A stretch of 60,862 nucleotides of DNA from an uncultured virus (IMG/VR IMGVR_UViG_3300010352_002076) (lineage: Duplodnaviria > Heunggongvirae > Uroviricota > Caudoviricetes): IMG/VR virus record IMGVR_UViG_3300010352_002076; one strand, written 5' to 3'. Position numbers and translations under genes: made by a program. Each line of letters starts with the position of its first letter. Position 1 is the stretch's first letter. Shown piece by piece: positions 2,053 to 48,825 of the stretch. Under the pieces are notes generated by a model that had not been told where the DNA came from, did no database searches, and saw nothing but the letters and a program-made list of their open reading frames with translations.

Positions 2053-4458
2053 TCACGTCGCCACATCAAGCGTCGAAGTGCCGATCTGAATCGTGTGATC
2101 GAAGAAAGTCGTGAGCTTGTCTTCGTGGGTGACCACGAGGACCTGACGGCCAGTGTGGGCCGACATCTTCTTCAGCTCCAGCAGGACCATCTGCAGGTTC
2201 TGGATGTTGGCGTCGTCGAGATAGTTCGAGGGCTCATCCAAGACGAGCAGCCCGACCTGCCGGGCAAAGGTGTCCGACATCCCCATGCGGAAGCTCACTG
2301 ACGCAATGATCTTCTCGGCGCCACTGAGGCGCAGGGCGTCCATCTCGGCCGCGCTGTTCTTGGACGCCCGGAACTCGAGGTCGTCGCTGAGCCAGACCCG
2401 GAACGGGGCCTGGAACTTCTCGAGGTAGTAGTCGAGCTGGCCGTTCAGGATCTTGCCGTACTCCTGCATGATGAGACGCGGGAGCTGCCCGACGTGGAGG
2501 ACATCACGAGACTCCCGGACCAGCTTGACCCACGCGGCGTGCTTGGCCTCCGTGGCGACCTGACGCTGGAGCCGTTCGCACTCCTGGTGCCGGGTGTCCC
2601 GGGTTGCTGTGGTCATGGCAACGTCAGACCGCAGCTTGGTCTCGGCGCTGCGCAGTGCGAGCAGCACCGGGATCGACGCCTGGGCCGCAGCGACTTCCTG
2701 ATCCGACGGGGCGTCCAGCGTGGTCCCCAGCGCAGCCTTGGCCTCCTTGGCAGCCTGGACCGCGGCGGTCTGGTTCTGCGCCGAGTTCGCCGCGATGGCG
2801 GCGCGCTGCCGCAACGCGTTGGTGTCAGCGACGGCGTTCTCGATCGCCGTGATCCGGGTCCCGAGATCGGCGAGCTCAGCCGCGCTTGGTGCCTGAACTG
2901 GTGCCCCCATAGCGGCCTCATAGGCCTGGAGCTGGCTCGCGAGCTGCTTCCGACGCGTCAGCAGGTTCCAACCTGCTGCAGCCGCGGTCCGGGCAGCCAC
3001 CAGGGCGCCCTGGGTAACCAGGAGCTGCTGGTTCAGGAACGCGGTGCAGCTGTCCCGGAACCCGCGGAGCTGCTCGTTCAGCGTGTCTCGACGCCTGGCC
3101 AGGGTGTCAAGCGCGGCGGCCTCGGCGGCGCACTCCGCGACCTCCATGGCGGTGCCCCGGGCGCAGACCTCGTCGTACTCTGCCTTGCGGCGCTGGGCCT
3201 CCTGGGGCCCGCCGGCGACGTCCTGGCCGCACGTCGGACACTTCCCCGTGGCGAAGTGGTCGAGGTGCTGTTTCAGATTCCGAGCGTGGTCTCGCAGCGC
3301 CACGAGCTCCGGGGACCACTGGACTCCCTTGCCACGCCGGACCTGGATCTCAACCGTGACGGCCTGGAAGGCTGCGTTGGCCTCGGCCTCTGCGGGGACC
3401 TGGGGGCGCACCACGGCGCCGGTGAGCATGCCCTGGATGCGCTGGACCGCGTTGTTGGCCTCGGTCTCAGCGGCGACGAGAGCGGCGACGTCGGGATCCG
3501 TGATGACCTGGAGCCCATCGAGCTCGGTCTGCAGCGTGGTCCGACTCGCCGCCACCACCGCATAACGATCAAAGTTCGCCTTGAGGTGTGTCAGTTCGGC
3601 GTACTTCTGTCGCATCCCGGGGAGCAGGATGTCGTCACCGCCAAGTGCGGTCTCCGCGGCTGCCAGCGCCGCAGCTGCCTTGTCGCGCTCCGCGTTGAGC
3701 CTGGTCTCCGCCGCCAGCGCTGCCGCCAAGGTGGCGTCGGCCTGGCGCAGTGCCGCGTTGTGTTGCTGGGCCCGGTCCCGGCGCTGCAGCACGGCTTCAT
3801 GCGGGGCCTGGGCCGCGATCCTGGCCTGGACATCCTGGAGCTCCTGCTCGATCCTGGCGAGATCGGCGACGGAGCTCCGGTACCGGGTCACGGCGTCGTT
3901 CAGGGCATCCTGGAGCCCCGGGGTGATCTGGAACGCCGTGGCTTCGTCGCTCAGGATCCGAAAGGCATCCGCGGCCGCGGCGAGCCCGAAGGCCTGCTGG
4001 AACTCCTTGAGACGCTCCGTGTTCTTCTGGAACAGGATGCCGTCAATCTTGCCCTGCGGCACGAATACGGCGTCGAGCAGGGTCGCCGGCGTGGTCCCGA
4101 GGAGCTCGTTGATCCGGGCCTGGACCTCACCGATTTTCCGGAGGTCGTGCTTGGTTCCATCGGGCTCGGTCCACCTCATGTGGCAGCCGCCGTTGTGGAT
4201 GTTCCGCTTGATCTCGTAGCTGAGGTCGCCGATGCGAACCTTGCCCTGGACGAAGCCGGCCTTGGTGCCCCACTTCAGGTTGTCCTCGCGACCCCCGGGG
4301 TTGATGGACTCCCCGGTGAACAGGAGGCGGATGGCATCGAGGAAGTTGGACTTCCCGTTGCCGTTGGCCCCGATGATCCCGTTGACGCCGGGACGCAAGG
4401 GAACCCTGAGGCTGGCGTGTTGGCACCAGTTCTCGAGATACATCTCTTCAATGAACAT
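2053..4458 (-). CDS. sbcC: SbcC/Rad50-like SMC-family ATPase (gp46-like recombination exonuclease subunit)
   Basis: Walker A GANGNGKS, Q-loop FVPQG, coiled coil with Zn-hook CPTCG, signature LSGAE, Walker B LLVLDEP, H-loop VVTH. Confidence 0.92.
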   Translation of the reverse strand: MFIEEMYLENWCQHASLRVPLRPGVNGIIGANGNGKSNFLDAIRLLFTGESINPGGREDNLKWGTKAGFVQGKVRIGDLSYEIKRNIHNGGCHMRWTEPDGTKHDLRKIGEVQARINELLGTTPATLLDAVFVPQGKIDGILFQKNTERLKEFQQAFGLAAAADAFRILSDEATAFQITPGLQDALNDAVTRYRSSVADLARIEQELQDVQARIAAQAPHEAVLQRRDRAQQHNAALRQADATLAAALAAETRLNAERDKAAAALAAAETALGGDDILLPGMRQKYAELTHLKANFDRYAVVAASRTTLQTELDGLQVITDPDVAALVAAETEANNAVQRIQGMLTGAVVRPQVPAEAEANAAFQAVTVEIQVRRGKGVQWSPELVALRDHARNLKQHLDHFATGKCPTCGQDVAGGPQEAQRRKAEYDEVCARGTAMEVAECAAEAAALDTLARRRDTLNEQLRGFRDSCTAFLNQQLLVTQGALVAARTAAAAGWNLLTRRKQLASQLQAYEAAMGAPVQAPSAAELADLGTRITAIENAVADTNALRQRAAIAANSAQNQTAAVQAAKEAKAALGTTLDAPSDQEVAAAQASIPVLLALRSAETKLRSDVAMTTATRDTRHQECERLQRQVATEAKHAAWVKLVRESRDVLHVGQLPRLIMQEYGKILNGQLDYYLEKFQAPFRVWLSDDLEFRASKNSAAEMDALRLSGAEKIIASVSFRMGMSDTFARQVGLLVLDEPSNYLDDANIQNLQMVLLELKKMSAHTGRQVLVVTHEDKLTTFFDHTIQIGTSTLDVAT

Positions 4459-22875: not shown

Positions 22876-24798
22876 GTGAAGACCTTTGGAACTACTACGG
22901 TCACGGCCCCGAAGAAGTTCGAGGTCAGTTCCGCGGACTACGGGACCGACCTGGGCCCCGGGGTCCCGGCGCAGCGGGCCAGCCAGGACCGCGTCGATGT
23001 CGTCAGGGCTGTGAACAACTTCAGGACGGTGCTTGAGGAGCGACCTGAGGTCGGCTTCGCTTCGATCCTGCCGCTGATCTTCAGACTCAAGGGGAAGCCG
23101 TTCGACATCGTCGATGGACACTTCTTGTTCGAGCATGAGTTCGTGGTGCACAATATGCCGCGTCGGCAGATCGACAAGGCGGGTCGTCAGGTCGCGAAGA
23201 GCACGAACAAGGCGGCCGGCGGCATCATCCGGGCCGCGGCACGACCCTACTACAACCTGCTCACGGTGACGCCGCTCTTCGAGCAGATCCGCAAGTTCAG
23301 TAACAACTACGTGAAGCCGTTCCTGCGGGAATCCGCGGTGCGGTCCTACCTCTTGGCGCAGGGTAGTGACCAGCAGGTCCTGCAGCGCACCCTGAGCAAC
23401 GGCTCCACACTGTTCTACAACTACGCCTCGAACAGCGCTGACCGTATCCGTGGTACCCCGGCTGACGAGGTCGACTTCGACGAGCTCCAGGACTTCGAGC
23501 TCGACGTGCTCCCGGTCATTCAGAGCTGCCTCGACGCGTCGCCCTACAAGATCGAGCGATACAGCGGTACCCCGAAGACGTTCGACAATCCGCTGCAGGT
23601 CTACTGGGATTACAGCTCCAAAGGGGTCTGGCATATCCCGTGCCAGGAGACCGGCTGCAAGCACGAGAACCGGTGCACCGTCGCCGACGAAGGCGACCTG
23701 CTCAAGATGATTGGTGATGGGCGCCGGCGGAAGGACGGCCGCCTGAACACCTTGCTGTGCGCGAAGTGCGGGAACCCGGTCAACGCCAGGCTGGGCTATT
23801 TCATCCACGCCTTCCCGAATCGGAGGCTCACCTTCGCGGGCTTCCATAAGCCCCAGATCTTGTTCCCGATGCACTACGAAAGTGCGTTGGCGTGGGACAA
23901 GATCATGGATGTCGCCAGGAACAAACCGAAGTACCTGTTCTACAATGAGGTCCTCGGGGAGAGCATCGACGTTGGTCAGAAGCTGATCACGATCGGCGAC
24001 CTCAAGGCCGCTGGCATCGGCAAGTATCAATCCCCGAGCACCTTTGACCGTTCCAACTACATCGCAACCGCGGTCGGCACGGACTGGGGCGGCAAGGGCA
24101 AGGAGAAGGTGTCTGACACCGAGGAGTTCATCTCGAACACCTCATTGGCCCTGGGCGGCATCAGGGGCGATGGGGTCGTCGAGATCACCTGGGGCTACCA
24201 GACTCAGTATTCCGCGGACCACTTCCGGGAGGCCGGGATCTGCAAGGAGGCCGCCGGCATCAGCGGTGCCGACATCATTGCGCATGACTACGGCGGCGCC
24301 GGTGACGTCCGCGAAAGCATCCTGATCAAGGCGGGTTGGCCAGCGGGCCGGATCCTGCCGTTCACCTACGTCGCCATGGGTCTCAACAAGAACATCGTGA
24401 CGTTCACGAAGGGACCAGCTGACGCCCGGGCCTCGTACAGTCTGGACAAGGCCCGATCGCTTCTGCTGCTCTGCGAACTCATCAAGGCGAAGAAGGTGAT
24501 CTTCCCGGAATACACGGGTCGCATGGCGACCCTGATGAACGACTTCCTGGCGATCTACCAGGAGAAGCGCGACAACCCACGCGGTGGTTCCTCGGTCCTG
24601 ATCAACCGAATCCACAAACAGCACGACGACTTCGTGCACGCCGTGAACTTCGTCGTCATGGGGCTGTTCCATCGAACCGGTAAGTGGCCCAACATGGGCG
24701 CGATCTGGGAAGAGATCATGGCGCTGAGGGTTGTCGGTTCCGATGGGACCGAGGAGAGCGACAAGCCGGGGCTCTGGCTGCCCGCGGATGTCCGCTAG
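22876..24798 (+). CDS. terL: terminase large subunit (GpA-like)
   Basis: KAGRQVAKST Walker A variant, RIRG...DFDELQD Walker B, SGTPKT motif, Cys cluster, nuclease motifs VGTDWG and DDFVHA. Confidence 0.88.
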   Translation: MKTFGTTTVTAPKKFEVSSADYGTDLGPGVPAQRASQDRVDVVRAVNNFRTVLEERPEVGFASILPLIFRLKGKPFDIVDGHFLFEHEFVVHNMPRRQIDKAGRQVAKSTNKAAGGIIRAAARPYYNLLTVTPLFEQIRKFSNNYVKPFLRESAVRSYLLAQGSDQQVLQRTLSNGSTLFYNYASNSADRIRGTPADEVDFDELQDFELDVLPVIQSCLDASPYKIERYSGTPKTFDNPLQVYWDYSSKGVWHIPCQETGCKHENRCTVADEGDLLKMIGDGRRRKDGRLNTLLCAKCGNPVNARLGYFIHAFPNRRLTFAGFHKPQILFPMHYESALAWDKIMDVARNKPKYLFYNEVLGESIDVGQKLITIGDLKAAGIGKYQSPSTFDRSNYIATAVGTDWGGKGKEKVSDTEEFISNTSLALGGIRGDGVVEITWGYQTQYSADHFREAGICKEAAGISGADIIAHDYGGAGDVRESILIKAGWPAGRILPFTYVAMGLNKNIVTFTKGPADARASYSLDKARSLLLLCELIKAKKVIFPEYTGRMATLMNDFLAIYQEKRDNPRGGSSVLINRIHKQHDDFVHAVNFVVMGLFHRTGKWPNMGAIWEEIMALRVVGSDGTEESDKPGLWLPADVR

Positions 24799-25632: not shown

Positions 25633-25697
25633 AGCTAAAAGAACCCACTGCCCCATCTCCCAACGGCCCAGGTGTGGGCCGTTGGGAGATGGGGCAG
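25633..25697 (-). terminator. perfect 23-bp hairpin with downstream T-tract
   Basis: CTGCCCCATCTCCCAACGGCCCA (25648-70), 4-nt loop, exact complement (25675-97); minus strand continues TGGGTTCTTTTAG. Confidence 0.65.
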
Positions 25698-25904
25698 GGT
25701 GATCCATGCTCAGACGCCCTTGGAGGCGCTGGGCGCCCCCGAGGGGGCTCTGGCCGGCCGGGGGGCCCCAGTATCCAAGGCGGTCTCCCAAAGGAAACCG
25801 TTCTTAGATGGATGTAGTCGACGCCATACCAACCCGTCTGCTTTCATCGCTGGTGTCAGGGCCGGGGGATTGCTCCCCCGGGCCCATTGCCGATCGGCCA
25901 CGTC

Positions 25905-26891
25905 TCAGGCCGTCACGGATTCGGCCACGACGCAGCGCTTCGCCGCGGCCACCAGCGCGGCGACACGGTCGACTTCGCCGCTGAGGTCGACGCGGACCCC
26001 GGCCTTCGACAGCGCGGTGCGGAGACGCCCCTCGCCGCCGACACCGGTGGCGAGGTTGATGGCGACGTTGATCGCCGTCAGCTGCTCCTCGGTGACCATG
26101 AAGACTTCCGGCTTCGCCGCGGCCTCCAGCTTCGCCAGGAGCTCGTCCTTGCGCAACTTGCTGACCCCGACGATCCCGAGCGCCTTGGCCTGCGCCTTGA
26201 GCTCGGTCACGGTCATGGCGTCCGCCGTCTCGACCAGCGCCTCCACGGCTTCCTTGGTCTTGGCAGCTTCGGCTTCGGCCGCGGCCTTGGCGGCTTCGGC
26301 GTCATCCAGCGCCTGGCACAGCGCCGGCATCGCGGGCCGCAGATCGACACGACCGGCACCGATCATGTGCTCGCGGGTGTACCAGCTCAGCCGGTACGCG
26401 ACCCCCGCCGTCATGTCCCCGGGGAACTGGAGGACCACCATCTTCTTGGCGGTCTCCTTGTCGACGACGGTCTCGTCCCTCCAGTTGGCGAGGAACAGGT
26501 TCGCGGACTTCGCGTGCCGGGCGGCCCCGGTCGCGGCGAGTCGGAACTCTTCGGCGCTCTCCGGGCTGCGGAGCCGCTGCGCCACGACGCAACCGTCCGG
26601 CAGCCTGACCTCGTTGCCGAGGTACACCGCCGGCTTCTCGCCGCTGCGGCCGTAGACCGCGAACAGGCTCAGGGTGCCGCCGGGCACGACGTGCTGGGCA
26701 CGCCGCTGGAAGCTGAGGGCGAGGCCGCGGCAGCTGGCGACCAAGGAGCCGACGTCGATCGGCTTGCGCGGGTCCAGGTTGATCTCGACCTCGAGCCGGG
26801 CCTTGATCAAGGCAGCGGCGTCGGCCTTGAAGCGGGCGACGTCGCCCTGGTTGGGGGAGCTGGCGAACAGGGTGATGGACTTCTGCGACAT
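25905..26891 (-). CDS. Rho termination factor N-terminal (Rho_N) domain-containing protein (328 aa)
   Basis: MTVTELKAQAKALGIVGVSKLRKDELLAKL matches the Rho_N pattern; start re-picked at MSQKSI with AAGGA upstream. Confidence 0.7.
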   Translation of the reverse strand: MSQKSITLFASSPNQGDVARFKADAAALIKARLEVEINLDPRKPIDVGSLVASCRGLALSFQRRAQHVVPGGTLSLFAVYGRSGEKPAVYLGNEVRLPDGCVVAQRLRSPESAEEFRLAATGAARHAKSANLFLANWRDETVVDKETAKKMVVLQFPGDMTAGVAYRLSWYTREHMIGAGRVDLRPAMPALCQALDDAEAAKAAAEAEAAKTKEAVEALVETADAMTVTELKAQAKALGIVGVSKLRKDELLAKLEAAAKPEVFMVTEEQLTAINVAINLATGVGGEGRLRTALSKAGVRVDLSGEVDRVAALVAAAKRCVVAESVTA

Positions 26892-27017
26892 GGGATTGTC
26901 CTTCCGGAGGTCTACTCCGAAATGGGTGATGGACGGGCCCCAATAGCGAGTGCTACCGGGCTGGTGCCCCTTGCGGGACATGATGAGCCCCGGGCGCCTG
27001 TTAGGGCACCCGGGGCT
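26892..27017 (-). promoter_or_regulatory. structured four-hairpin leader, copy B
   Basis: Hairpin loops CTAACA, GCAA and TAGAC shared with copy A; outer stems covary. Confidence 0.7.
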
Positions 27018-27046
27018 ACTGAACAACATCTCACAACGGATGAGCT

Positions 27047-27244
27047 TCATCTACCGCCGAGCCTGGCGCCGCCAATGACGACGTGGCTCAGTTCATATCG
27101 CGCCCAGTGGGAGCGCACCTCAGACCGCGGACGCCGAACGTACGGGATCGGCAAGAGCTGATCTCCCGACGCAGCCTTCCACGACACTGATGTTTGCCAG
27201 ATCTCGAGCGTCCAGCGCCCGAGGCAGCAGAGTTGAACCAGCAT
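27047..27244 (-). CDS. possible small protein (65 aa)
   Basis: TGATG overlap and GGAGG upstream; weak codon bias. Confidence 0.35.
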   Translation of the reverse strand: MLVQLCCLGRWTLEIWQTSVSWKAASGDQLLPIPYVRRPRSEVRSHWARYELSHVVIGGARLGGR

Positions 27245-27747
27245 CAGACCTCTTCCATCTCCGGCACGCTGACGAGGTCCTCGAGACCGCTGAGGTTCTC
27301 GAGGTGGTCCGCGGCGCTGTGGTCCGTGAAGACATCACCCACTTTGACCTCGCGGTCAAGATGGGGCTTCAGCGCAGCCTGAACCGCCAAGAAGCGGCTC
27401 CAGCTGCGCCCGGCCTGGGCGCCGTCATCGATCTTCTCCAGGAGCTTCTCCTGGATGGCCTCTGCGGCCGCGTTGAAGCCCAGGGCGAGCCGGCGGGCGC
27501 GATACAGGGCGCCGAGCCGGGCAGCTTCGGCCTCGAGGTTGCGGGCACGGATCTCAGGGGCCATTGCGGGATCCGGGGTCTGGCCGCAGGCGCGCTCACC
27601 GTTCGCCATGCGGGCGAACGCAGCTTCGCGGCACTGCGCCACGGTGGCGTCTTTGGGCAGACCGAAGATGACGACGCAGTCGTCGAGCTCGCTGGTCGCG
27701 GCAGCCAGGGTAAGGGTGGAAAGGGCGAGGGAGTGAACGAGGGTCAT
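27244..27747 (-). CDS. hypothetical helical protein (167 aa)
   Basis: AAGGA RBS, strong codon bias. Confidence 0.7.
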   Translation of the reverse strand: MTLVHSLALSTLTLAAATSELDDCVVIFGLPKDATVAQCREAAFARMANGERACGQTPDPAMAPEIRARNLEAEAARLGALYRARRLALGFNAAAEAIQEKLLEKIDDGAQAGRSWSRFLAVQAALKPHLDREVKVGDVFTDHSAADHLENLSGLEDLVSVPEMEEV

Positions 27748-27869
27748 GGGGATTCCTTGTCAGGTCTACTGACGGGATGTGGCTTCGCAGCGGAGATGCT
27801 GCGACAACCGGGTTTAGGTGCCCCTTGCGGGACATAACGCACCGCGGCGCCTGTTAGGGCGCCGCGGTG
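27748..27869 (-). promoter_or_regulatory. structured four-hairpin leader, copy A
   Basis: Same layout as copy B; 19-nt identical core GGTGCCCCTTGCGGGACAT (+ strand) at 27817 and 26963. Confidence 0.7.
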
Positions 27870-27872
27870 TTT

Positions 27873-28373
27873 TCAGAGCTCAAACGATAGTCGAAGCCAG
27901 GCCCCCAGCGAGGAGGTCATGGGATAGTCGGGATGCCCCGGTGGATGAGCGTTTGCCCGGTAGTCGCGCTGCGGGGCGTAGAACCCCTCGAGCGTGACGG
28001 GGCCCCAGCCGACACCGGCATGTGGCAACCAGGCCAGGCTGTCCACTGCGCTGCCGTGGAGGTAGCCGAACGCTAGGGTCCCTTCGACGTGGAACCCATC
28101 GAGGTCGCCAAGGACCACCTTGGGGCCGCCGGCGAAGACAGCGCTGGGTTCCCCGAAGGAATCCCGATACGCCGCCGTGACCACCTTGGCACCGACATGG
28201 CACCAGGTCCCACGTAGCACCCGGGTCAGCCCGACACCGAGTCCCGGGTTCCACTGCTCATAGGCAGAGGCATGCCCGGGATGATACGATGTCCCGAACA
28301 GGTAGACATCGACGGTGTCGACGTCCTCGACGCCCCCGAGAAGGGCGGCAACAAACAGCAGAAACAGAACCAT
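27873..28373 (-). CDS. PagP-like outer-membrane beta-barrel protein
   Basis: Signal peptide; YLFGTSYH...YEQWNPGLGVG...AYRDSFGE resembles the PagP WH / NE-PWG-G / FKDS motifs; alternating beta strands; AAGGAGG RBS. Confidence 0.55.
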   Translation of the reverse strand: MVLFLLFVAALLGGVEDVDTVDVYLFGTSYHPGHASAYEQWNPGLGVGLTRVLRGTWCHVGAKVVTAAYRDSFGEPSAVFAGGPKVVLGDLDGFHVEGTLAFGYLHGSAVDSLAWLPHAGVGWGPVTLEGFYAPQRDYRANAHPPGHPDYPMTSSLGAWLRLSFEL

Positions 28374-28430
28374 TGATAGCCTCCTTTCAGGGCATGGAGA
28401 CCCCCTGGCGGGGGTCCCGGGTTATGGGGT

Positions 28431-28492
28431 TGGGGGCACCTCCAGGGGTCGAACCTGGCCCTGTGCTTATTCACAGGTCTCCGAGGGGTGCC
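28431..28492 (-). ncRNA. D-armless tRNA-like element ending in CCA
   Basis: GGCACCC-CTCGGAGA-CCTGTG/AATAAG/CACAGG-G-CCAGG/TTCGACC/CCTGG-AGGTGCC-C-CCA. Confidence 0.6.
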
Positions 28493-28499
28493 ATAGCTA

Positions 28500-28574
28500 C
28501 GGGAATCCTGAACCGAAGTTCAGGATTCCCGAGGATGAGATTTGTATGCAGCGTGAGCTACATATTCCTCTCAT
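28500..28574 (-). ncRNA. two hairpins upstream of the tRNA-like element (one with a cUUCGg loop)
   Basis: Perfect 14-bp stem 28500-28531 with TTCG loop on the minus strand; ATGAGA-GGAA-TATGTAGC/TCAC/GCTGCATA-CAAA-TCTCAT at 28535-74. Confidence 0.55.
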
Positions 28575-28606
28575 TATAATATACGCTATTTTACCCATAT
28601 ATTCAC
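28573..28606. promoter_or_regulatory. AT-rich patch with -10-like hexamers
   Basis: Palindromic ATTATAAT at 28573-80 (TATAAT on both strands); TAAAAT on minus at 28588-93; no TTGACA partner. Confidence 0.45.
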
Positions 28607-28716
28607 CTGTTTTGGGACCCCCTCCCAGGGGGTCCAGCGTGCTGAAACTCCCCCTAGGGGGTTTCCAGGGCGCCTCTTCAACTTCAGAGTTGAATACCCC
28701 CCTCCCCGGGGCCCCC

Positions 28717-31194
28717 CTAGGCCTGGTTCCCGGCGTAGTGCGAGGCGGCCGCGTTCCAGACCGCTTCCGGGATGCCCCATTCGCCGCCCCGATTCAGGGT
28801 CAGGAACCGGGCCGCTACGAGCTGCCTGGCCAGGACCTCGAGGTCAGCCTTGGGGGTCAGGGGGTGTGCCAGCGCGGCCCGGACCTCGGCGACCTGCAGG
28901 ATCACGAGGTCGTCCCGCTTTGCGGGGTGCAGGGTGCCCCGCTCCTGTGCCCACTGCAGCGTGAGCAGCAGGGTGAATCCAGCGTTGCCGGCGTGATTCA
29001 CGGACTTTCCCAGTTCCCGGGCCGCGACGTCGAAGACATCCCCGGCGATGCCCCGGGGCACCAGGGCGGCCCGGAGTCGGCGAGCGATGTCACCGTAGAT
29101 GTTCTCGGCGTCGAGGCGGATCTCCTGAGGTCCCGGGGCCCAGAGCAGGTCCCGCAGCATCAGGAACACGAACCGGATCGTGGGGCCCCAGGAGAAGTCC
29201 ACGGCGTCCAGGCAGAGCCAGTTCTTGTGGAGCCGAAGGATCCGGTGGCTCCCGGGGTCCGCGGACATCAGGACGTGCATCGGGACCCCGGAGAGGAACG
29301 CCTCGGCGAGGCCGTCGTCGGTCCAGATCACCGGGGTCGGCACCGGGCTCAGGGCGTCGCGCTCCAGGCGGTCGGGCCGGGGATCCCGGACCACGGGGAC
29401 CCGAAGCGCCGACGCTACGGTCTCCACGACGTGTGGCGCGGCGCGCACGGCGAGCCCGTACCCCGGGAGCCCGGCCTGGGTCCGGAGCAGGTTCCCCATC
29501 AGAGCCAGCAGGATCTGGCAGGCCTGGGGATCCTGGATGACGCCCCACTCCTCGGGGCACAGCGGGGCCGGTCGCGGCAGCATGGGTCCGCCCATGGTGG
29601 CCTGCTCGGTTCCCGTGATCCCATCGGCTCGAACCACGAAGTACGGCATCACCAAGGCGCGGCCGCTATCGCTCCAGCCGTAGCTGGCGCCCTGGACGAT
29701 GCGGCGGGGCTCCTGAAACCCTGACGCAATCCTAAGAAGTCGGGAGCGCCACGCCGAGTTCACCATGGGGACCCCGGCACCTGGTCGGGACATCACGGTG
29801 TCCTCGAGCCAGTTCCAGGTGTTCCGACGGATCTCGTCGTAGCTGCACTCGAAGGGCACGGACTGCCGGCGGAACCGGGTGTAGCCACGCGCCGTGGTGG
29901 CGCTCCCCGAGATCAAGATCTCGGTGATCTGGAACGTAGCATCCGTGACCAGGGTGTCCCCGCAGAACCAGCCCTCGTCACGCTCCGTGACCACCTTGCC
30001 GTCGACATCCACGGTCTTGATGTGGGTACCCCGCTCGAAGATCCGACTCAGCAGCGTGGCATCCTCACCGTTCAGGGCCTGGAAGCACCGGCTCTGCCCA
30101 ACCGGAGACAGCGAAAACTCCGCAAAGATCCGCTTGGCTTCACCGGGCTTCCGGGACAGCAGGAACCTGGCGTAGGCCTCGTGGGATCCCCGGGCTCGAT
30201 TCTTCAGGTTAATCAGGGTGGTCCGAGACGCGGCGCCAACGATGCTCCGGGGGGCCAGCGTCTGCGTCGGCGTGAACCCGAGGTCGTCATAGTTCGCGAA
30301 GTAGATGATGCGCGCCGAGGGGACCTCAGTGGCACGGAAGAACCACTCCGGGCTCAGCGTGGCGGTGAAGAAGATCGGAGCGGATTCCCCGATGCAGCCC
30401 AGGTCGACGTGACGTCGATGAGCCGGCGCAACGAACGGCGTTTCGAGGTCGCCGTCGAAGAGCTGCCGGACGTTGTAGCGCAGCGCGACCAGGGCGGAGT
30501 CCGCGACGACGACCTCCGGGGTACCCACGGGGACCCCGTGGGCGAAGCCAACGCCGTTGTCTGCAGAGCTCACCACCGGCAGGAACATCTCGATCGGGGT
30601 GACGCCTTGATCCGTGGGCTCGTGCTGCCGGATCAAGTGGAACCCCGTGATCCTCCAACCCACATAGGTCGGGATCGCCAGCGCCATGCTGTGCCCCCAC
30701 CACGCCTTGGCCTCCTTGGCCTCCTTGGGTAGATCGAAGTCGAACTCCTCGAAGCGTTTCGGGTGCAGGGCGCCGACGTAGCGGGATGCTTTCTTCGCGG
30801 TCTCCATGCCGTACCAGGCCAGGTTGTTCACGAGGAGGGCACGGGGCACCGTGGTCTGGGATGCCATGGTCTCCTGAGCCCCGGCCCAGATCAGCTGGAG
30901 CGTAGCCTGCTCCTGGGCGTCCGAGGTGTAAAAGGTCTCCTCGAGATCCGAGCTGAACTCGACGAGCCCGTGGAACTTGAGCTCAGTGATAGCCTCCGCC
31001 AGCGCGATCCGCTTGGCCGAGGCGTACAAGTGGATAATGTCCCCGACGAAGGCACACTTCCGGCATGCGATGGACGACGAGCCACGAATGGACAGCGCAG
31101 ACTCGGTGCCGCACACCGGGCAGCGCTGTTCCGTCGCGGCCTCATAGCCTCGCAGGTCCACCCGCTGCAAGATTTCCTTCAGGGAGCTTCTCAT
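28717..31194 (-). CDS. large primase-like protein (N-terminal Zn finger; catalytic motifs not evident)
   Basis: CPVC...CRKC followed by FVGDIIHLY...AEAITEL, like a DnaG Zn-binding domain; start 31194 or 31209. Confidence 0.55.
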   Translation of the reverse strand: MRSSLKEILQRVDLRGYEAATEQRCPVCGTESALSIRGSSSIACRKCAFVGDIIHLYASAKRIALAEAITELKFHGLVEFSSDLEETFYTSDAQEQATLQLIWAGAQETMASQTTVPRALLVNNLAWYGMETAKKASRYVGALHPKRFEEFDFDLPKEAKEAKAWWGHSMALAIPTYVGWRITGFHLIRQHEPTDQGVTPIEMFLPVVSSADNGVGFAHGVPVGTPEVVVADSALVALRYNVRQLFDGDLETPFVAPAHRRHVDLGCIGESAPIFFTATLSPEWFFRATEVPSARIIYFANYDDLGFTPTQTLAPRSIVGAASRTTLINLKNRARGSHEAYARFLLSRKPGEAKRIFAEFSLSPVGQSRCFQALNGEDATLLSRIFERGTHIKTVDVDGKVVTERDEGWFCGDTLVTDATFQITEILISGSATTARGYTRFRRQSVPFECSYDEIRRNTWNWLEDTVMSRPGAGVPMVNSAWRSRLLRIASGFQEPRRIVQGASYGWSDSGRALVMPYFVVRADGITGTEQATMGGPMLPRPAPLCPEEWGVIQDPQACQILLALMGNLLRTQAGLPGYGLAVRAAPHVVETVASALRVPVVRDPRPDRLERDALSPVPTPVIWTDDGLAEAFLSGVPMHVLMSADPGSHRILRLHKNWLCLDAVDFSWGPTIRFVFLMLRDLLWAPGPQEIRLDAENIYGDIARRLRAALVPRGIAGDVFDVAARELGKSVNHAGNAGFTLLLTLQWAQERGTLHPAKRDDLVILQVAEVRAALAHPLTPKADLEVLARQLVAARFLTLNRGGEWGIPEAVWNAAASHYAGNQA

Positions 31195-32866
31195 GAACGG
31201 TTCGGTCACCTTGGTTCAGCTTCACGAGCTCATCGGCATCGCCGAGAAGCCACCCTACGTGAAGGCGGCTTCCGAACAAGTCCAGCGGAGCGCCCCGGAA
31301 CCCCGGCACTGCGCCGACGGGCTCGGGTGCCAGTACCCCTGTGACTCCAAGGAGCAGACCTGGCTCAGCGCCGTGAAGCTGGCCGCCGCCGGCGGCGACG
31401 CCGAGATCCAGGCCGGGATCGAGAAGTTCGCCCGGTTCTGGGGCATCACCGCGGACGTTCAGACCGCTCAGAAGAAGATCGCAGCCGAGCTCGCGGTCCC
31501 GGCCCTCGAGGACCGCGACTTCGCCTTGGTGCAGGAGCACCGCGGCGAGAAGATCCGGAAGTTCGCCGCCTTCGACAGCAACAGCACCGTGAAGGCTGCG
31601 TCCGCGTTCTACAAGAACCGGCACCGCTACCCCATGGCATGGCGCAAGCAGGCCGCCGTCGAGCTGATCCGCCGCAGCGAGGCCCACCTGGCCCAGCTGC
31701 CGCCCGTCGTCAACGACTACCTCCACAAGGCCGCCGGCTTCGGGTTCCCCAGCGTAGCGGCCATCGAGGATGCCATTCTGGCGCGCACGGATCGCTGCCA
31801 GGGCCACCTGAGGGGGGCAGGGGTCAAGCTCGCCGAGGCGCTGGGCGCCATCGCGGCCCACCCCGATCTCCGCTACAACAACGACCTCGTCAGGGATGCC
31901 CTCGAGGTCATGGACCACTTCGACCAGAGCACCAAGCTGGCCGCTCACTACGGCGACGATGTCTCGCTCCCTGAGGAGATCCTGGATCTGACGCAGCCCA
32001 TGCTGCAGAAAGCCGCGGGCTACGTCGCGGGGCAGTGCAAGCTGCAGAACGGCATCAACGTCAACGTCCACGATCTCACCAAGGAGGCCCTGGCTGCAGT
32101 CAGCGACGAGCTCGCCGAGATGCCGCTGGCCAAGCTCGCCGCGGTGCTCCCGACGCTGCCGGCCCCGGATGCCAACGTGCTCTGCCGTGCCTCCGGGATC
32201 TCGACGAAGCAGGCTGCCGCCGGCGCCGACCTCCTCGATGTGATCCGGAAGCGCGCCGGGGCCGCGATGCCGCCCCCGCCGGCGCCGCCGGCGGCCGCAG
32301 CGGCGCCGCAGGACCCCGGCCTGCCCCCGATGCCGCCCGGCCAGGATCCCGCGGCAGCCGCGGCCCCGCAGCCCGGCCCCGGTGCCGTTCCTGGCGCCCC
32401 GGCCCCGGGCCAGCCGCCGCCGGCCCCTGGAGCCCCCGGCGCCGCCCCGGCGGCGCCGCCGCTCGAGAAGGTCCCCGGCCAGGCCCCGGCGCCCGGCGCC
32501 GCCCCGGCCGGTCAGAGCGCCCTGGCGGCGGGTGCCCCGCCGAGCCCGCAGGCTGTGCCCGGCGAAGTCGCTGGCGGACCGCTGGACGCCGGCGGCAACG
32601 CTCCGGAACCCGGCGCCATCTTCGACGCCCCGCTCTTCGATCCGGGCTCCGTGGAGCCCCCGAAGAGCCTGGACCCCACCAAGGACCCCGCGATGCAGGC
32701 GGCGGCCCCCGGTTCCGACGCCACGGCCTCCCTGGCCGACGCCGGCGGCGGCGCTGGGGATGTCCTCGGCGGCGCAGGCCCCGGTGCCGGTGCCCTGGCC
32801 CAGGAACAGCCGCCCCGCCAGGGCGTCACCAAGGACCAGGTCTCCGGACTGCCCCGAGGCGTCTAA
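31193..32866 (+). CDS. hypothetical protein (557 aa) with Pro/Ala/Gly-rich C-terminal tail
   Basis: AGGGAG RBS, strong codon bias. Confidence 0.8.
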   Translation: MNGSVTLVQLHELIGIAEKPPYVKAASEQVQRSAPEPRHCADGLGCQYPCDSKEQTWLSAVKLAAAGGDAEIQAGIEKFARFWGITADVQTAQKKIAAELAVPALEDRDFALVQEHRGEKIRKFAAFDSNSTVKAASAFYKNRHRYPMAWRKQAAVELIRRSEAHLAQLPPVVNDYLHKAAGFGFPSVAAIEDAILARTDRCQGHLRGAGVKLAEALGAIAAHPDLRYNNDLVRDALEVMDHFDQSTKLAAHYGDDVSLPEEILDLTQPMLQKAAGYVAGQCKLQNGINVNVHDLTKEALAAVSDELAEMPLAKLAAVLPTLPAPDANVLCRASGISTKQAAAGADLLDVIRKRAGAAMPPPPAPPAAAAAPQDPGLPPMPPGQDPAAAAAPQPGPGAVPGAPAPGQPPPAPGAPGAAPAAPPLEKVPGQAPAPGAAPAGQSALAAGAPPSPQAVPGEVAGGPLDAGGNAPEPGAIFDAPLFDPGSVEPPKSLDPTKDPAMQAAAPGSDATASLADAGGGAGDVLGGAGPGAGALAQEQPPRQGVTKDQVSGLPRGV

Positions 32867-33535: not shown

Positions 33536-33831
33536 ATCCGTACCGTTCCGGTCTGCAGTGGCAGCACTAGGGTCTGTGTCACCAGCGCCAGCTTGAGGTC
33601 AGCGACCTCGTTGGCGTAGGCGGCGCCGCTGAGCAGGGACTGCAGCACGACTTCCTGCTTCGTATCCGACATCAGCACTGGCTTCGGCTTCAGGCACGTC
33701 GAGCACTGCTCCTGGCCGTTCAGCGGCACCTTGGTGCCGCTGCGCACGGGATCCAGGAACCCGAACTGCTTGAACCGCGTCGAGGATGCCAGCGCGGTCA
33801 GAGCTTCCTTGTTGAGTAGGACCTCGCTCAC
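33532..33831 (-). CDS. hypothetical protein (99 aa, CxxC)
   Basis: GTGA overlap; last gene of tail operon. Confidence 0.55.
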   Translation of the reverse strand: MSEVLLNKEALTALASSTRFKQFGFLDPVRSGTKVPLNGQEQCSTCLKPKPVLMSDTKQEVVLQSLLSGAAYANEVADLKLALVTQTLVLPLQTGTVRI

Positions 33832-45875: not shown

Positions 45876-46300
45876 GTCTTCTGGGGGCCTATGGGGAGAT
45901 CGTCGGACAGGAGGAGGTCGTCGAGGTGGTCGCTCCGACGCGACGCATCTTCCACTGTGGTGCGGAGCTGGGCAAGGGCGGCGCCGCGAGAGCTACGAAG
46001 CACCGCTGAGGTCCGGCGCGCAGCCTCCAGCACGGCGTCCTGGAGCTCCAGGCCGGTAAGGTAGGTCGATAACGTCACGGTGTCCTCGGCGTCACCGATC
46101 ACTGCCTCGTAGGCGGCGTGGATGCCGGCAGTGGGCGGGTACCCCGGGGTCGCCTGTTCCTGACCCGCCAGGGGGTCCCTGGCGGCGTTGGAGAAGTCAC
46201 CGGTCTGGAGCCCCACGTTGAGCCCGTTGAGCTCGGAGTCGCGGACCTGGCGCCACGCCGTGGTCTCCGCAGTGGTCTGGCGCTGCTTCGCTTCAACCAT
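45872..46300 (-). CDS. hypothetical protein (142 aa)
   Basis: Operon packing. Confidence 0.6.
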   Translation of the reverse strand: MVEAKQRQTTAETTAWRQVRDSELNGLNVGLQTGDFSNAARDPLAGQEQATPGYPPTAGIHAAYEAVIGDAEDTVTLSTYLTGLELQDAVLEAARRTSAVLRSSRGAALAQLRTTVEDASRRSDHLDDLLLSDDLPIGPQKT

Positions 46301-47153
46301 TGTATTCGTCCAGCTTGGCCTGGATCCGGGAGACGCGCTGGCTGATCGCGGCGGGGCTCAGGCGGAGCCGCTTCGCGATGTCGACGTTGCTGAGCACAGG
46401 GGCGCCGCGGTACCCGGTGCGGTACTGCATCACGACCCGGTCGACCTCAGGGAGATCGTGGTACACGGCATCGATCCAGTCATCGTAGCCAGTGCGTTCC
46501 GCGGCGGTGACATCCCTGTCGGTCTCGGAGTCATCATCGTTGCCGAAGCCCTCGGTGTACTGGCTCTCGGAGACCCGGCTCCGGATCCCCTTGCGGATCT
46601 TGGTGACGCGGCGCACCGGGAGCCCCGTGAGCTCCGAGATCTCCTCGTCCGTGGGCTCCCGGCCGATGTCGTCCGCGGCCTGGCTGATCGCAGCCATGAT
46701 CTTCCCACTGTCCCGCCGGGTCCGTTCCGGCTGCGGCATCGGGTCCGAGATCTGAGGGGCCTCGCGCTGGAGCCGCTGGAGCTGGCGGTACACATGGGTG
46801 TTGAGATCAGCGCCCTGGTCCGGCTTGAAGGAACGAATGGCCCCAGCGGCGATGATCCTGGCGCGGCTCCTGACGACCTCAGTGGCGTTCGGAGCGTAGG
46901 CCCGGAGTGCCTTCTCGATCGTCGGGTTCAGGTGGTCCACTACGCCGCGGAGCCCCTGCGGCGTCGGCTTGCGCCGGTAGTCCGCGAAGGGATCAGGCGA
47001 GGTTGCTGGATCCGTTGTTGACGGGGAAGTCCCCCACTCCCGTGACAGCTCGGCTGTTGGGGTCCACGGGCGTGGTGTCAGGGGCTTCGTCGAGGCGGGC
47101 TCCGAGGTAAGTCGTGGCCCATATTGGGTGGAGATCCGAGGTACCCCCTGCAT
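46293..47153 (-). CDS. sigma-70 family RNA polymerase sigma factor (probable late sigma); start uncertain
   Basis: Region 2 AIRSFKPDQGADLNTHV, region 3 IGREPTDEEISELTG, region 4 LSNVDIAKRLRLSPAAISQR. Confidence 0.8.
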   Translation of the reverse strand: MQGVPRISTQYGPRLTSEPASTKPLTPRPWTPTAELSREWGTSPSTTDPATSPDPFADYRRKPTPQGLRGVVDHLNPTIEKALRAYAPNATEVVRSRARIIAAGAIRSFKPDQGADLNTHVYRQLQRLQREAPQISDPMPQPERTRRDSGKIMAAISQAADDIGREPTDEEISELTGLPVRRVTKIRKGIRSRVSESQYTEGFGNDDDSETDRDVTAAERTGYDDWIDAVYHDLPEVDRVVMQYRTGYRGAPVLSNVDIAKRLRLSPAAISQRVSRIQAKLDEYNG

Positions 47154-48825
47154 ACGATCCAAGAGGTCCGGGGTCGACGTCCTGGGCCTGCTGCTGATCC
47201 GATCGGGCATACATGATCTCCAGGACGGTTACGGCCCGTTTTGATGCGGCGTCGAGAACAATGCTAACGCCCTCTACGGACCCATAAATAGCCGCGGCGT
47301 CGATGAGCCCGGTGCCAGCCACGTCCGGGTAGACCATTCGTACCGGGGTGCATACCCCGATATCCAGCCGTAGTGGGCATTCCACGGTCAAGCTGTGCCC
47401 CATGTAGGCCTGCTTCAGCGTGAGCTCCCTGGCGTAGGGGTCCCCGAACTTCCGGAGCTCGTCGACATAGAAGCGGTTCCGGGCCGCTTCTACGCGTGCT
47501 GCCGTGTTCGTTTTGCCGGTCTGGCCCGAGAGCCAGGTCGGCGCCGGGAGCGCCATCAGCATGCCCAGGGCGTTCCCGTTGGGATCAAGCGGGTTCGTTG
47601 GGATCGGGGTCCCGGGACGGCTGTAGGCCCCGTAAACCGCGAACGTGGCCGCGGACTGCCCATCGCTACGGGCCGACGCGAACAGGGTTCCGCGGAGGTT
47701 GTCGACGAACGCCAGACCTGCCAGGGTGGCCGTGGAGTGCGATGTCCACTGCGTCGAGTACACAGTGTCAGGCCAGATCGTGGCCTTGATGGCAGACCGT
47801 GGCACGAACGGGGTGTACGGGACCACGGCGTAGCCGAGACCGTTCTCGATCAGCGCGAAGTGGAAGTCCTCAGCGAGCGCCTTGATGCGCTGCAGGATGC
47901 TCTGCTGGGCCAGATCGTAGTGCAGCTCGGCATTGAAATATGCCGTGACGACCTGACCCATCGCGGTCGTGCTGAAGATGCCGCCAGGGAGCCCGCCACC
48001 GATCTGGTTCAGCATCGCCGCGTTGACCGTGGATCGCTTTCCCTGGAGCTTGAACTCCTGGATGAAGGCTCCCAGCGCGTTCGTGTTGGCGACGCCGATG
48101 AGGGACTCCTCGATGTTGATGATGCGGAGGTAGCAGTCCTTGATCGACTTCCAGAAGTCGACGCCGGGGTCCCCTTTGATTCCGATGGGGAAGTTGTTGT
48201 TCAGCAGGTTGGCGAGGCCACCACCGAGGTAACCTGACGGAAGTCCGGAATACTGCAGGGAGCCCGTGGCGAGATAAATCAGTTTAGAGACAATGATGAC
48301 GCGCAAGTTGAATCGACCGTGGCTCAAGTTGCTGGGACCACCGTCGTCGACGACCCCATCGAACAGGACATGGGTGCCCTTCTTGAGCAGGAGGCTTCGA
48401 CCCTCGCGGCCATCAGCCGCGCCAGTTTCAGAGCCGACGTCACGGTCGACCTCAACGAGAACCCGTGCAGGGGTGCCTCGGATGAACTTGAAGTTCGCTG
48501 GGATCGCTTTGCGCCCAGCAATGTCCCGTGTGTTCGTGCCGACGGCCAGCTCACAGATCGCTCTGCCCTCGTGCTTGGACTGCGTCACGGCAACCTGGAC
48601 TGCAGCATACTCGACGCTGCCGATCTCGACCCAGGCGCGGAACGCGAACGACACCGATGGGAGATCACCCTGGCGGGTCGACGACAACAGGCTGGCAAGA
48701 CGGTCTCCGCTGGGAGACGATGCAGGCTTGGTGTACGACGTCGCGTTGGCGCCCTCAGTCGTGGAACCGTCGGCGCGGGTTGCGAAGTTACCAACCCCGA
48801 ATCCTCCTCCTTGCGCCGTAGCCAT
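46993..48825 (-). CDS. baseplate hub-like protein (610 aa)
   Basis: Position after TMP; VLFDGVVD and ECPLRLDI...YGSVEGVSI tube-fold-like strands. Confidence 0.55.
   Translation of the reverse strand: MATAQGGGFGVGNFATRADGSTTEGANATSYTKPASSPSGDRLASLLSSTRQGDLPSVSFAFRAWVEIGSVEYAAVQVAVTQSKHEGRAICELAVGTNTRDIAGRKAIPANFKFIRGTPARVLVEVDRDVGSETGAADGREGRSLLLKKGTHVLFDGVVDDGGPSNLSHGRFNLRVIIVSKLIYLATGSLQYSGLPSGYLGGGLANLLNNNFPIGIKGDPGVDFWKSIKDCYLRIINIEESLIGVANTNALGAFIQEFKLQGKRSTVNAAMLNQIGGGLPGGIFSTTAMGQVVTAYFNAELHYDLAQQSILQRIKALAEDFHFALIENGLGYAVVPYTPFVPRSAIKATIWPDTVYSTQWTSHSTATLAGLAFVDNLRGTLFASARSDGQSAATFAVYGAYSRPGTPIPTNPLDPNGNALGMLMALPAPTWLSGQTGKTNTAARVEAARNRFYVDELRKFGDPYARELTLKQAYMGHSLTVECPLRLDIGVCTPVRMVYPDVAGTGLIDAAAIYGSVEGVSIVLDAASKRAVTVLEIMYARSDQQQAQDVDPGPLGSYAGGTSDLHPIWATTYLGARLDEAPDTTPVDPNSRAVTGVGDFPVNNGSSNLA

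Follow-up and report, generated by a model that had tools for sequence, protein, structure and literature searches.

A duplicated four-hairpin element tied to two start codons in one operon of an uncultured phage

What is the role of a structured segment that a phage genome carries twice, each time ending at the start of a gene? We analyzed a 60,862-nt stretch of DNA (the window) from an uncultured virus of the class Caudoviricetes (IMG/VR record IMGVR_UViG_3300010352_002076), in which two such segments, copies A and B of one element, are located on the minus strand between positions 26892 and 27872. The element unit is about 125 nt long, is composed of four consecutive hairpins, H1 to H4, and has its 3' end at the ribosome-binding site (RBS) of a gene. 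The gene downstream of copy A is here called gene A, and that downstream of copy B gene B. The comparison with a related phage shows that the hairpin architecture is under selection, on the gene strand, and is tied to the two start codons within one operon. We propose, tentatively, that the element acts as RNA on the expression of the gene that follows it.

Architecture of copies A and B

The two copies and their hairpins are positioned as follows; SD denotes the Shine-Dalgarno sequence.

27748..27872, minus strand: element copy A (H1–H4 and SD), between the PagP-like gene (stop codon) and gene A (ATG at 27747)
27840..27869, minus strand: H1 of copy A, 12-bp GC-rich hairpin with loop CTAACA
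27819..27834, minus strand: H2 of copy A, 6-bp hairpin TGTCCC-GCAA-GGGGCA with a GNRA tetraloop
27781..27809, minus strand: H3 of copy A, variable hairpin
27754..27777, minus strand: H4 of copy A including the outer UCC/GGA pairing; the hairpin itself, GTCAG-TAGAC-CTGAC, spans 27773-27759
26892..27020, minus strand: element copy B (H1–H4 and SD), preceding gene B (ATG at 26891)
26986..27017, minus strand: H1 of copy B, 13-bp hairpin with loop CTAACA
26965..26980, minus strand: H2 of copy B, same sequence as H2 of copy A
26939..26960, minus strand: H3 of copy B, CCCGGTAGC-ACTC-GCTATTGGG
26898..26934, minus strand: H4 of copy B including the outer GTCC/GGAC (anti-SD/SD) helix; the hairpin itself, TTTCGGAG-TAGAC-CTCCGGAA, spans 26922-26902

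H1 of copy A starts 3 nt past the TGA stop codon of the PagP-like gene and is not followed by a U-tract. The elements are therefore intercistronic in one apparent operon, and the term leader, used in an earlier note made from the letters of this DNA, was too strong. The H4 loop TAGAC is closed by a G-C pair. The outer UCC/GGA pairing of H4 in copy A covers part of the SD of gene A, AAGGA (27758-27754); the SD of gene B is AAGGA at 26903-26899.

The two minus-strand elements of about 125 nt ending at an RBS, which the earlier note had described, were recovered at the same positions, and each folds as four hairpins. The predicted folding energy is −62.5 kcal/mol for copy A (z −7.0) and −67.6 kcal/mol for copy B (z −4.87), and 0 of 200 shuffles were as stable in either case. 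The 19-nt block of H2, whose identity between the copies was also reported earlier, is present exactly two times in the window; at ≤3 mismatches, 0.02 occurrences are expected. The 15-nt core of H1 occurs exactly twice as well, and the window contains two CTAACA-loop hairpins with a stem of ≥5 bp, both of them inside the elements. A covariance model run over the 60.9-kb window with filters off scored copy B at 132.7 bits and copy A at 110.7 bits, with the runner-up at 19 bits. The element is not a known riboswitch or ribozyme, in agreement with the earlier note: a scan of the whole window against Rfam 15 gave 0 matches at the gathering score. With permissive filters over positions 26500-28300, the best match was BcKCsr2 at 24.5 bits (gathering score 40) on the opposite strand, and the rest scored ≤18 bits.

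Covariation in a related phage

A metagenome scan with a two-block pattern found 42 loci, 39 of which are unrelated according to a scripted check. Two further loci (L071 and L083) are one contig identical to the window, and the remaining locus, L080, is a true relative. L080 lies at the end of a 10.8-kb contig and contains the PagP-like gene, copy A', gene A', copy B' and gene B', in the same order as the window. The protein identity between the two phages is 57% for genes A and A' and 64% for genes B and B'. Third codon positions are only 46-63% identical, which places neutral sites near saturation. The elements are 83% (B and B') and 59% (A and A') identical, with adjacent coding DNA at 69% and 61%. 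The non-coding DNA around the elements differs between the phages by indels of 7 to ~190 nt, including one of 73 nt ahead of the PagP-like gene. The spacer from gene A to H1 of copy B measures ~220 nt in the window and ~33 nt in L080, and the stretch of ~190 nt that holds a 65-codon open reading frame (ORF) in the window is absent from L080. The elements thus appear, from these comparisons, to be under purifying selection.

All four copies, A, B, A' and B', fold independently into H1–H4 on the gene strand, whereas on the opposite strand the four-hairpin pattern forms in one copy of the four. A model built from B and B' alone recovers A' (82.9 bits) and A (57 bits). In the alignment of the four copies, fitted to the structure of the model, 97.3% of the 147 pair cells are standard pairs, compared with 79.8% in shuffles, and 16 of the 38 pairs have changed on both sides with pairing kept. 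On each of five measures, all 500 column shuffles fall short of the observed value. When the 3' partners are slid by 1-3 columns, ≤47.9% of cells are paired and ≤3 pairs are double-changed. The double-changed pairs are distributed over H1 (6/12), H3 (5/9), the inner H4 (4/7) and the anti-SD/SD helix (1/4), with none in H2 (0/6). A plain MAFFT alignment of B with B', which uses no structure, leaves H1 gapless and displays three double substitutions in it (G-C to A-T, G-C to T-A and C-G to G-C) together with one T-G to C-G change; 0 inner pairs are broken.

The earlier note had argued for selection on structure from the two copies of the window. The claim is borne out by a relative with 57-64% protein identity, which keeps both copies and in comparison with which 16 of 38 pairs are compensatory. 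The search for further covarying homologues, set beforehand as a refuting test, yielded one more phage with two covarying copies. Two details of the note did not hold. Loops described as invariant include that of H1, which is CTAACA in three copies and CCAACG in B', where it leaves a 4-nt CAAC loop, so that AAC alone is fixed in all four. The supposedly conserved CCCGGT is merely the 5' arm of H3, and L080 has CACCGT and CCCTGG in its place.

The constant parts of the element are H2, two loops and a set of distances. H2 is near-invariant in sequence; across the copies it carries two one-sided changes, both of which keep pairing through G-U, and none that is double, a pattern that fits a site read by its sequence. 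The GCAA loop and G-TAGAC-C are fixed in all four copies. Exactly 50 nt separate the 3' arm of H2 (GGGGC) from GTAGACC in every copy, even though the position and length of H3 vary and B and B' differ by +1 and −1 indels. The linker between H1 and H2 is always 5 nt long (CGTTA, CATCA or ACTCC). TAGACC is separated from the ATG by 15 nt in A and A' and by 17 nt in B and B'. H1 follows the preceding stop codon at 3 nt in A, 0 nt in A' and ~33 nt in B', and in B it begins 30 nt past the 65-codon ORF.

In the minimum-energy fold of each of the four copies, the SD pairs with a YCC stretch located 5' of H4. This anti-SD/SD helix contains one compensatory change, GUCC/GGAC versus CUCC/GGAG. Gene calls on the relatives place the start codons where they are assigned here. 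Two coding explanations of the element were rejected. It is not the coding N-terminus of gene B: across H3 the reading frames of B and B' go out of register, and H4 of copy A contains a stop codon in frame with gene A. A leader peptide starting from the ATG at the foot of H2 was dismissed as well, since its frame differs relative to genes A and B and the ATG is CTG in B'.

Operon surroundings and distribution

The window represents a very novel phage or prophage of high GC content (60-72%), in which nearly all genes are orphans besides a few recognizable ones. Protein family scans (Pfam, PHROGs and NCBIfam) covered 7 + 28 + 6 + 46 ORF translations. In addition to the genes listed below, the recognizable products are a baseplate J/wedge protein and SbcC- and SbcD-like proteins. 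No tRNA gene was called in the window. The local order on the minus strand is the primase-like gene, intergenic structures, the PagP-like gene, copy A, gene A, the 65-codon ORF, copy B, gene B and strong hairpins.

22876-24798: large terminase (phrog_675, E 3.3e-37)
25905..26891, minus strand: gene B, downstream of copy B; 328 aa, orphan N-terminal domain and a Rho_N/SAP-like motif
27047-27244, minus strand: 65-codon ORF, overlapping the stop codon of gene A (TGATG) and ending ~30 nt before H1 of copy B
27244..27747, minus strand: gene A, downstream of copy A; 167 aa, all-helical orphan
27873..28373, minus strand: PagP-like gene; 166 aa (phrog_3600, E 6.6e-9)
28717-31209, minus strand: primase-like gene; 830 aa, N-terminal CxxC...CxxC zinc-ribbon motif, judged by eye
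46296-47228, minus strand: sigma-70-family-like protein (Sigma70_r3, E 7.8e-7; TIGR02937, E 5.8e-7, below cut-off; phrog_351, E 1.4e-9)

The 830-aa primase-like protein had no match in Pfam, PHROGs or NCBIfam. The Rho_N/SAP-like motif of the gene B protein covers residues 225-256 (E 2.2e-7). Genes A and B are not paralogues (BLASTP E 4.5), and neither has a sequence match in the PDB. Their predicted structures have a pLDDT (predicted local distance difference test score) of 78.5 and 77.7, respectively, and Foldseek searches of both models against the PDB found nothing at E ≤ 0.001. The best VIA-align Z scores, 7.2 for the gene A model (helical) and 6.1 for the gene B model (helical hairpin 200-262; Rho N-terminal domain 5.4), are below the meaningful level.

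The operon region is rich in other structures. A tRNA-like element is located at the head of the operon (window 28431-28492, minus strand; L080 2215-2276, minus strand). It lacks a D arm; its acceptor stem is 6 bp long, and it further has a 6-bp arm (loop AAUAAG), a T arm of 5 bp (loop UUCGANN) and CCCCCA at the 3' end. The tRNA-like element is kept in both phages, with 5 of 26 pairs compensatory. Its best Rfam match, the tRNA-like mascRNA-menRNA, scores 24.7 bits, below the gathering score of 42.5, and ARAGORN made no call on it. It may be an RNase P-type processing signal. Just upstream of it stands a UUCG-tetraloop hairpin of 13-14 bp (window 28500-28531, minus strand; L080 ~2285-2315, minus strand); in L080 its loop and the flanking GTAGCTATGGC are kept, and the sequence of the stem is rearranged. 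Further upstream, an AT-rich island with TATAAT (~28575-28620, minus strand) stands out from the genome of ~65% GC. The island may be the operon promoter; a sigma-70 consensus scan does not call it, and it is known from the window alone, as L080 stops short of it. On the 3' side of gene B are a 23-bp perfect hairpin at 25648-25697, the longest in the window, and an 8-bp GCAA-loop hairpin at 25862-25881, which may mark the end of the operon. The region of 25.6-28.7 kb is the densest cluster of strong perfect hairpins in the window. A terminator scan of the minus strand over 25700-28600 found no terminator-like site. Sigma-70 promoter scans in and near the elements gave 0 sites, and a sigma-54 or sigma-70 promoter within the element was rejected on inspection and by the scans. 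Nine sequencing runs labelled RNA-Seq are probably DNA; contigs from four of them, placed on 25800-28500, are fragments of low depth that leave H1–H3 of both copies uncovered, and they carry no weight here.

The genome nearest to the phage is a metagenome-assembled genome (G001), in which a contig of >106 kb (C1) ends with a sequence that matches the last 27 kb of the window (33729-60862) at 100% identity. The match stops at window position 33729, a contig end, and the element region is not in G001. The phage is either integrated in the G001 organism or binned with it. A host repeat was rejected as an explanation of the element, as G001 contains just one near-match, which is not a hairpin. Gene B was found in 0 of 42 genomes of the family, and an alignment of 10 rows matched 0 of 401 genomes of the class. 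The RNA model (R2) gave two matches in 119 genomes of the order, at 24.4 bits (E ~0.005), which we take as chance.

The protein families are small, with 5 relatives for gene A and 9 for gene B among 5.8 billion clusters. Locus searches guided by the gene B protein alone gave nothing usable, nor did those with the protein alignment of B and B' against genome and viral contigs or with the 10-row alignment against viral contigs. Searching with gene A alone gave only marginal loci, L018 and L019 (34% identity over 53 aa), neither of which matches the RNA model. In viral contigs, the exact 18-mer of H2 had 0 matches, the 15-mer of H1 had 16 loci, none with H2–H4, and a looser two-block pattern had 31 loci, none of them convincing. 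The pattern of H2 followed by GTAGACC occurred at at least 120 loci in genome contigs and at 22 in viral contigs. The 142 matches listed were screened by script, and none of the 18 among them that were inspected by eye (H4 stem ≥4 bp or right length) was accompanied by H1, an RBS and an ATG. A blastn search of the INPHARED phages found no match. Judging from the protein searches, related phages number about ten, and the distribution of the element would accordingly seem narrow. An unrelated viral contig of 42 kb in IMG/VR (L006, 399-420, minus strand) has an 8-bp hairpin, GGGGCGCC-CTAACA-GGCGCCCC, with the loop and inner stem of H1. It lies 22 nt before an SD and ATG, without H2–H4, and is probably a chance occurrence.

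Readings of the element

We favor the reading, to which we give a probability of roughly 0.4, that the element is a cis-acting RNA module of the sense strand, present twice in a polycistronic transcript of the PagP-like gene, gene A and gene B, and controlling each following gene. In the proposed mechanism, H1 would need only to be a strong GC hairpin directly behind the upstream ORF, whose message it would terminate, pause or protect. H2, with its GCAA loop, is a likely site for a trans-acting phage or host protein, because its sequence is conserved beyond the needs of pairing. H3 would be a spacer hairpin. At H4, with its invariant loop G-UAGAC-C, the upstream YCC anti-SD would pair with part of the SD and partly occlude it, and a trans-acting factor perhaps also reads the loop itself. 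Whatever opens or stabilizes the 3' part of the element would then determine the translation of genes A and B, and the two genes would thereby be co-regulated. The action at the RNA level, the binding of a factor at H2 or H4, and the translational output are what we infer from the conserved architecture.

Several observations weigh against the RNA module. The comparative set consists of four sequences from two phages, and since their alignment was fitted to the structure of the model, the counts lean towards that structure. The 14 G-U cells versus one A-C cell are a biased count, as the structure was predicted on the sense strand. The fold energies of the sense and antisense strands are similar, with the sense strand lower in three of the four copies by ~3 kcal/mol. 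The probability that the SD is unpaired is 0.107 in B, 0.48 in A, 0.086 in A' and 0.269 in B', compared with a median of 0.39 from 24 window genes, A and B included; in the folding model, the occlusion of the SD is not exceptional for this GC-rich genome. For an SD-occluding translational operator or RNA thermometer, which would hold the SD in a helix more than ordinary genes do, the values fall on both sides of the median. No RNA-binding or regulatory protein was recognized among the scanned proteins of the window. Finally, a linear spacing of exactly 50 nt, whatever the H3, is more naturally explained by the geometry of duplex DNA than by RNA secondary structure.

Repeats at translation starts have a precedent in the start-associated sequences (SAS) of Cluster K mycobacteriophages. 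As far as the part of PMC3203893 that deals with them goes, SAS is a 13-bp asymmetric repeat with 11-19 copies at the starts of some non-structural genes, kept in related phages before the same gene families and with a suspected role in translation; the extended SAS adds one pair of 17-bp inverted repeats upstream of half of the sites. The present element is, like the SAS so described, a phage-specific repeat at translation starts with an upstream inverted repeat, found at the same genes in relatives. It differs from that description in having two copies of ~125 nt with four hairpins, another sequence and another host lineage, and does not qualify as SAS.

It is also possible, though on balance rather unlikely, that the element is a signal for processive antitermination, in which the nascent double hairpin of H1 and H2 modifies RNA polymerase, alone or with a phage protein that reads H2, and allows read-through of downstream hairpins. 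The section of PMC8632103 on such signals describes lambdoid nut sites as present in two copies per phage, each with boxA and a boxB hairpin that has a GNRA-type loop and a stem fixed within a phage, and as acting in cis as nascent RNA; boxB is bound by the arginine-rich motif of N and boxA by NusB-NusE. The same section presents HK022 put as an RNA of ~65 nt with a double hairpin, also in two copies per phage, which confers resistance to termination without a phage protein and in which pairing matters (PMC8632103). Measured against that account, the two copies per genome, on one strand and within an early-looking operon, are in line with both systems. H2, with a 6-bp stem and GCAA in all four copies, is a short GNRA hairpin with a fixed stem sequence and resembles boxB of a given phage, in form only. 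H1 and H2 form a double hairpin of ~52 nt with the constant 5-nt linker, similar in size to put, a likeness that does not imply the activity. Candidate targets for read-through are located downstream, namely H1 of copy B, the 8-bp GCAA hairpin at 25862-25881 and the 23-bp hairpin at 25648-25697. Compared with nut as described there, the element has four hairpins instead of a linear boxA and one hairpin. It runs directly into the SD and ATG of the following gene and has no sequence or Rfam relation to nut. No boxA-like linear motif could be named; only the 5-nt linker separates H1 from H2. The scans with Pfam, PHROGs and NCBIfam found no N-like or Q-like protein among the window ORFs, a miss that proves little for the N type, whose members are small and divergent. 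Compared with the put RNA of that account, the element continues with H3 and H4 to the RBS, and no homology was detected. Antitermination furthermore offers no explanation for the anti-SD pairing, nor for an H4 loop that never varies and keeps a fixed distance from the start codon, and the empty sigma-70 scans placed no promoter for it.

Sites of RNase III in phage T7 are intercistronic processing elements, as are the protein-binding sites between cistrons in plastids, which define RNA ends and free the RBS. The element could similarly be a passive cassette for processing or stability, in which H1, with H2, is a 3'-end hairpin, a terminator without a U-tract or a site for a double-strand RNase, H3 and H4 are the 5' structure of the processed message, and no dedicated regulator takes part; we regard this as unlikely. 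The resemblance consists of a structure between cistrons, with a 3' hairpin for the upstream message and structure at the next RBS. H1 stands close behind a stop codon in all copies (0 to ~33 nt), its stem sequence is free to vary as long as it pairs, the operon head holds other conserved structures including the tRNA-like, possible RNase P site, and the whole region is the hairpin-densest of the window. A role of structure alone does not account for an H2 that is near-invariant in sequence, for loops (GCAA and UAGAC) that are the same in every copy or for a spacing of exactly 50 nt. Moreover, the element lacks a double-stranded stem of ~20 bp, no RNase or binding protein was identified, and H1 does not qualify as an intrinsic terminator, since its 12-13 bp of GC-rich stem are followed by GCGTTATG, CATCATG or ACTCCTG and no U-tract, and the terminator scan of the minus strand was empty. 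The sequence conservation of H2 in place of covariation, and a 50-nt distance that is independent of what lies between, would both suit a site that acts as DNA. H2 would then be an imperfect 16-bp palindrome for a dimeric phage regulator, at a fixed distance from a promoter-like GTAGACC read by a phage sigma-like factor, or the element would be a hairpin promoter or priming signal in single-stranded DNA. The phage encodes a sigma-70-family-like protein (46296-47228), and the neighboring primase-like protein (28717-31209) has the zinc-ribbon motif only and no family match; sense and antisense strands fold about equally well. Recognition of duplex DNA does not, however, account for the compensatory changes in H1, H3 and H4. 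Both changes in H2 pair only through G-U, a mismatch in a DNA palindrome, and both copies have the same orientation and are tied to start codons. With TAGACC as a −10 box, transcripts would begin within the SD or past it, even though the SD is conserved; inspection of the four copies revealed no conserved −35 partner, and the sigma-70 scans were empty. The virion RNA polymerase of phage N4 uses promoters with a short hairpin and a 3-nt loop. The loops of the element are 4-6 nt long, and no RNA polymerase family was found besides the sigma-like protein in the window, which is possibly a partial genome. We consider an action as DNA distinctly improbable. An interpretation of similarly low probability is an autonomous RNA device of a new class, in which the exact spacings reflect a compact tertiary fold, for example with the GCAA loop of H2 docked in another helix; such a device would sense a signal and gate the RBS, or would reprogram RNA polymerase as put does, with no dedicated protein. 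A mobile or selfish repeat of the REP (repetitive extragenic palindrome) or MITE (miniature inverted-repeat transposable element) type, which landed twice and is functionless for the phage, would explain a palindrome-rich element of ~125 nt repeated in intergenic DNA. It is hardly credible, since a phage diverged to near saturation at synonymous sites carries the element at both sites, with order and orientation kept. There are only two copies in 60.9 kb, none in the nearest genome G001 and two weak 24-bit matches in the 119 genomes of its order, and no terminal repeats or target duplications were noticed.

We thus return to the cis-acting RNA module as the preferred reading. The element is a new motif of a known general kind, and it has the defining features of none of the systems to which it was compared. 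No description of the motif was found in the literature by a keyword-level search, which cannot show that the motif is unpublished. If real, the module would be a new structured cis-regulatory RNA motif in a phage lineage in which almost all genes are orphans, and would mark genes A and B as co-regulated. It is rare for one motif to unite stems that covary freely, a single GNRA hairpin of invariant sequence, two or three loops that do not change and a distance exact to the nucleotide; the element is therefore well defined as a target for structure probing and for binding and reporter work. Its reach is narrow, and until a function is shown it is of specialist more than general interest. An operon packed with conserved RNA structure, with a tRNA-like element at its head, hints at heavy post-transcriptional control in this uncultured group of phages.

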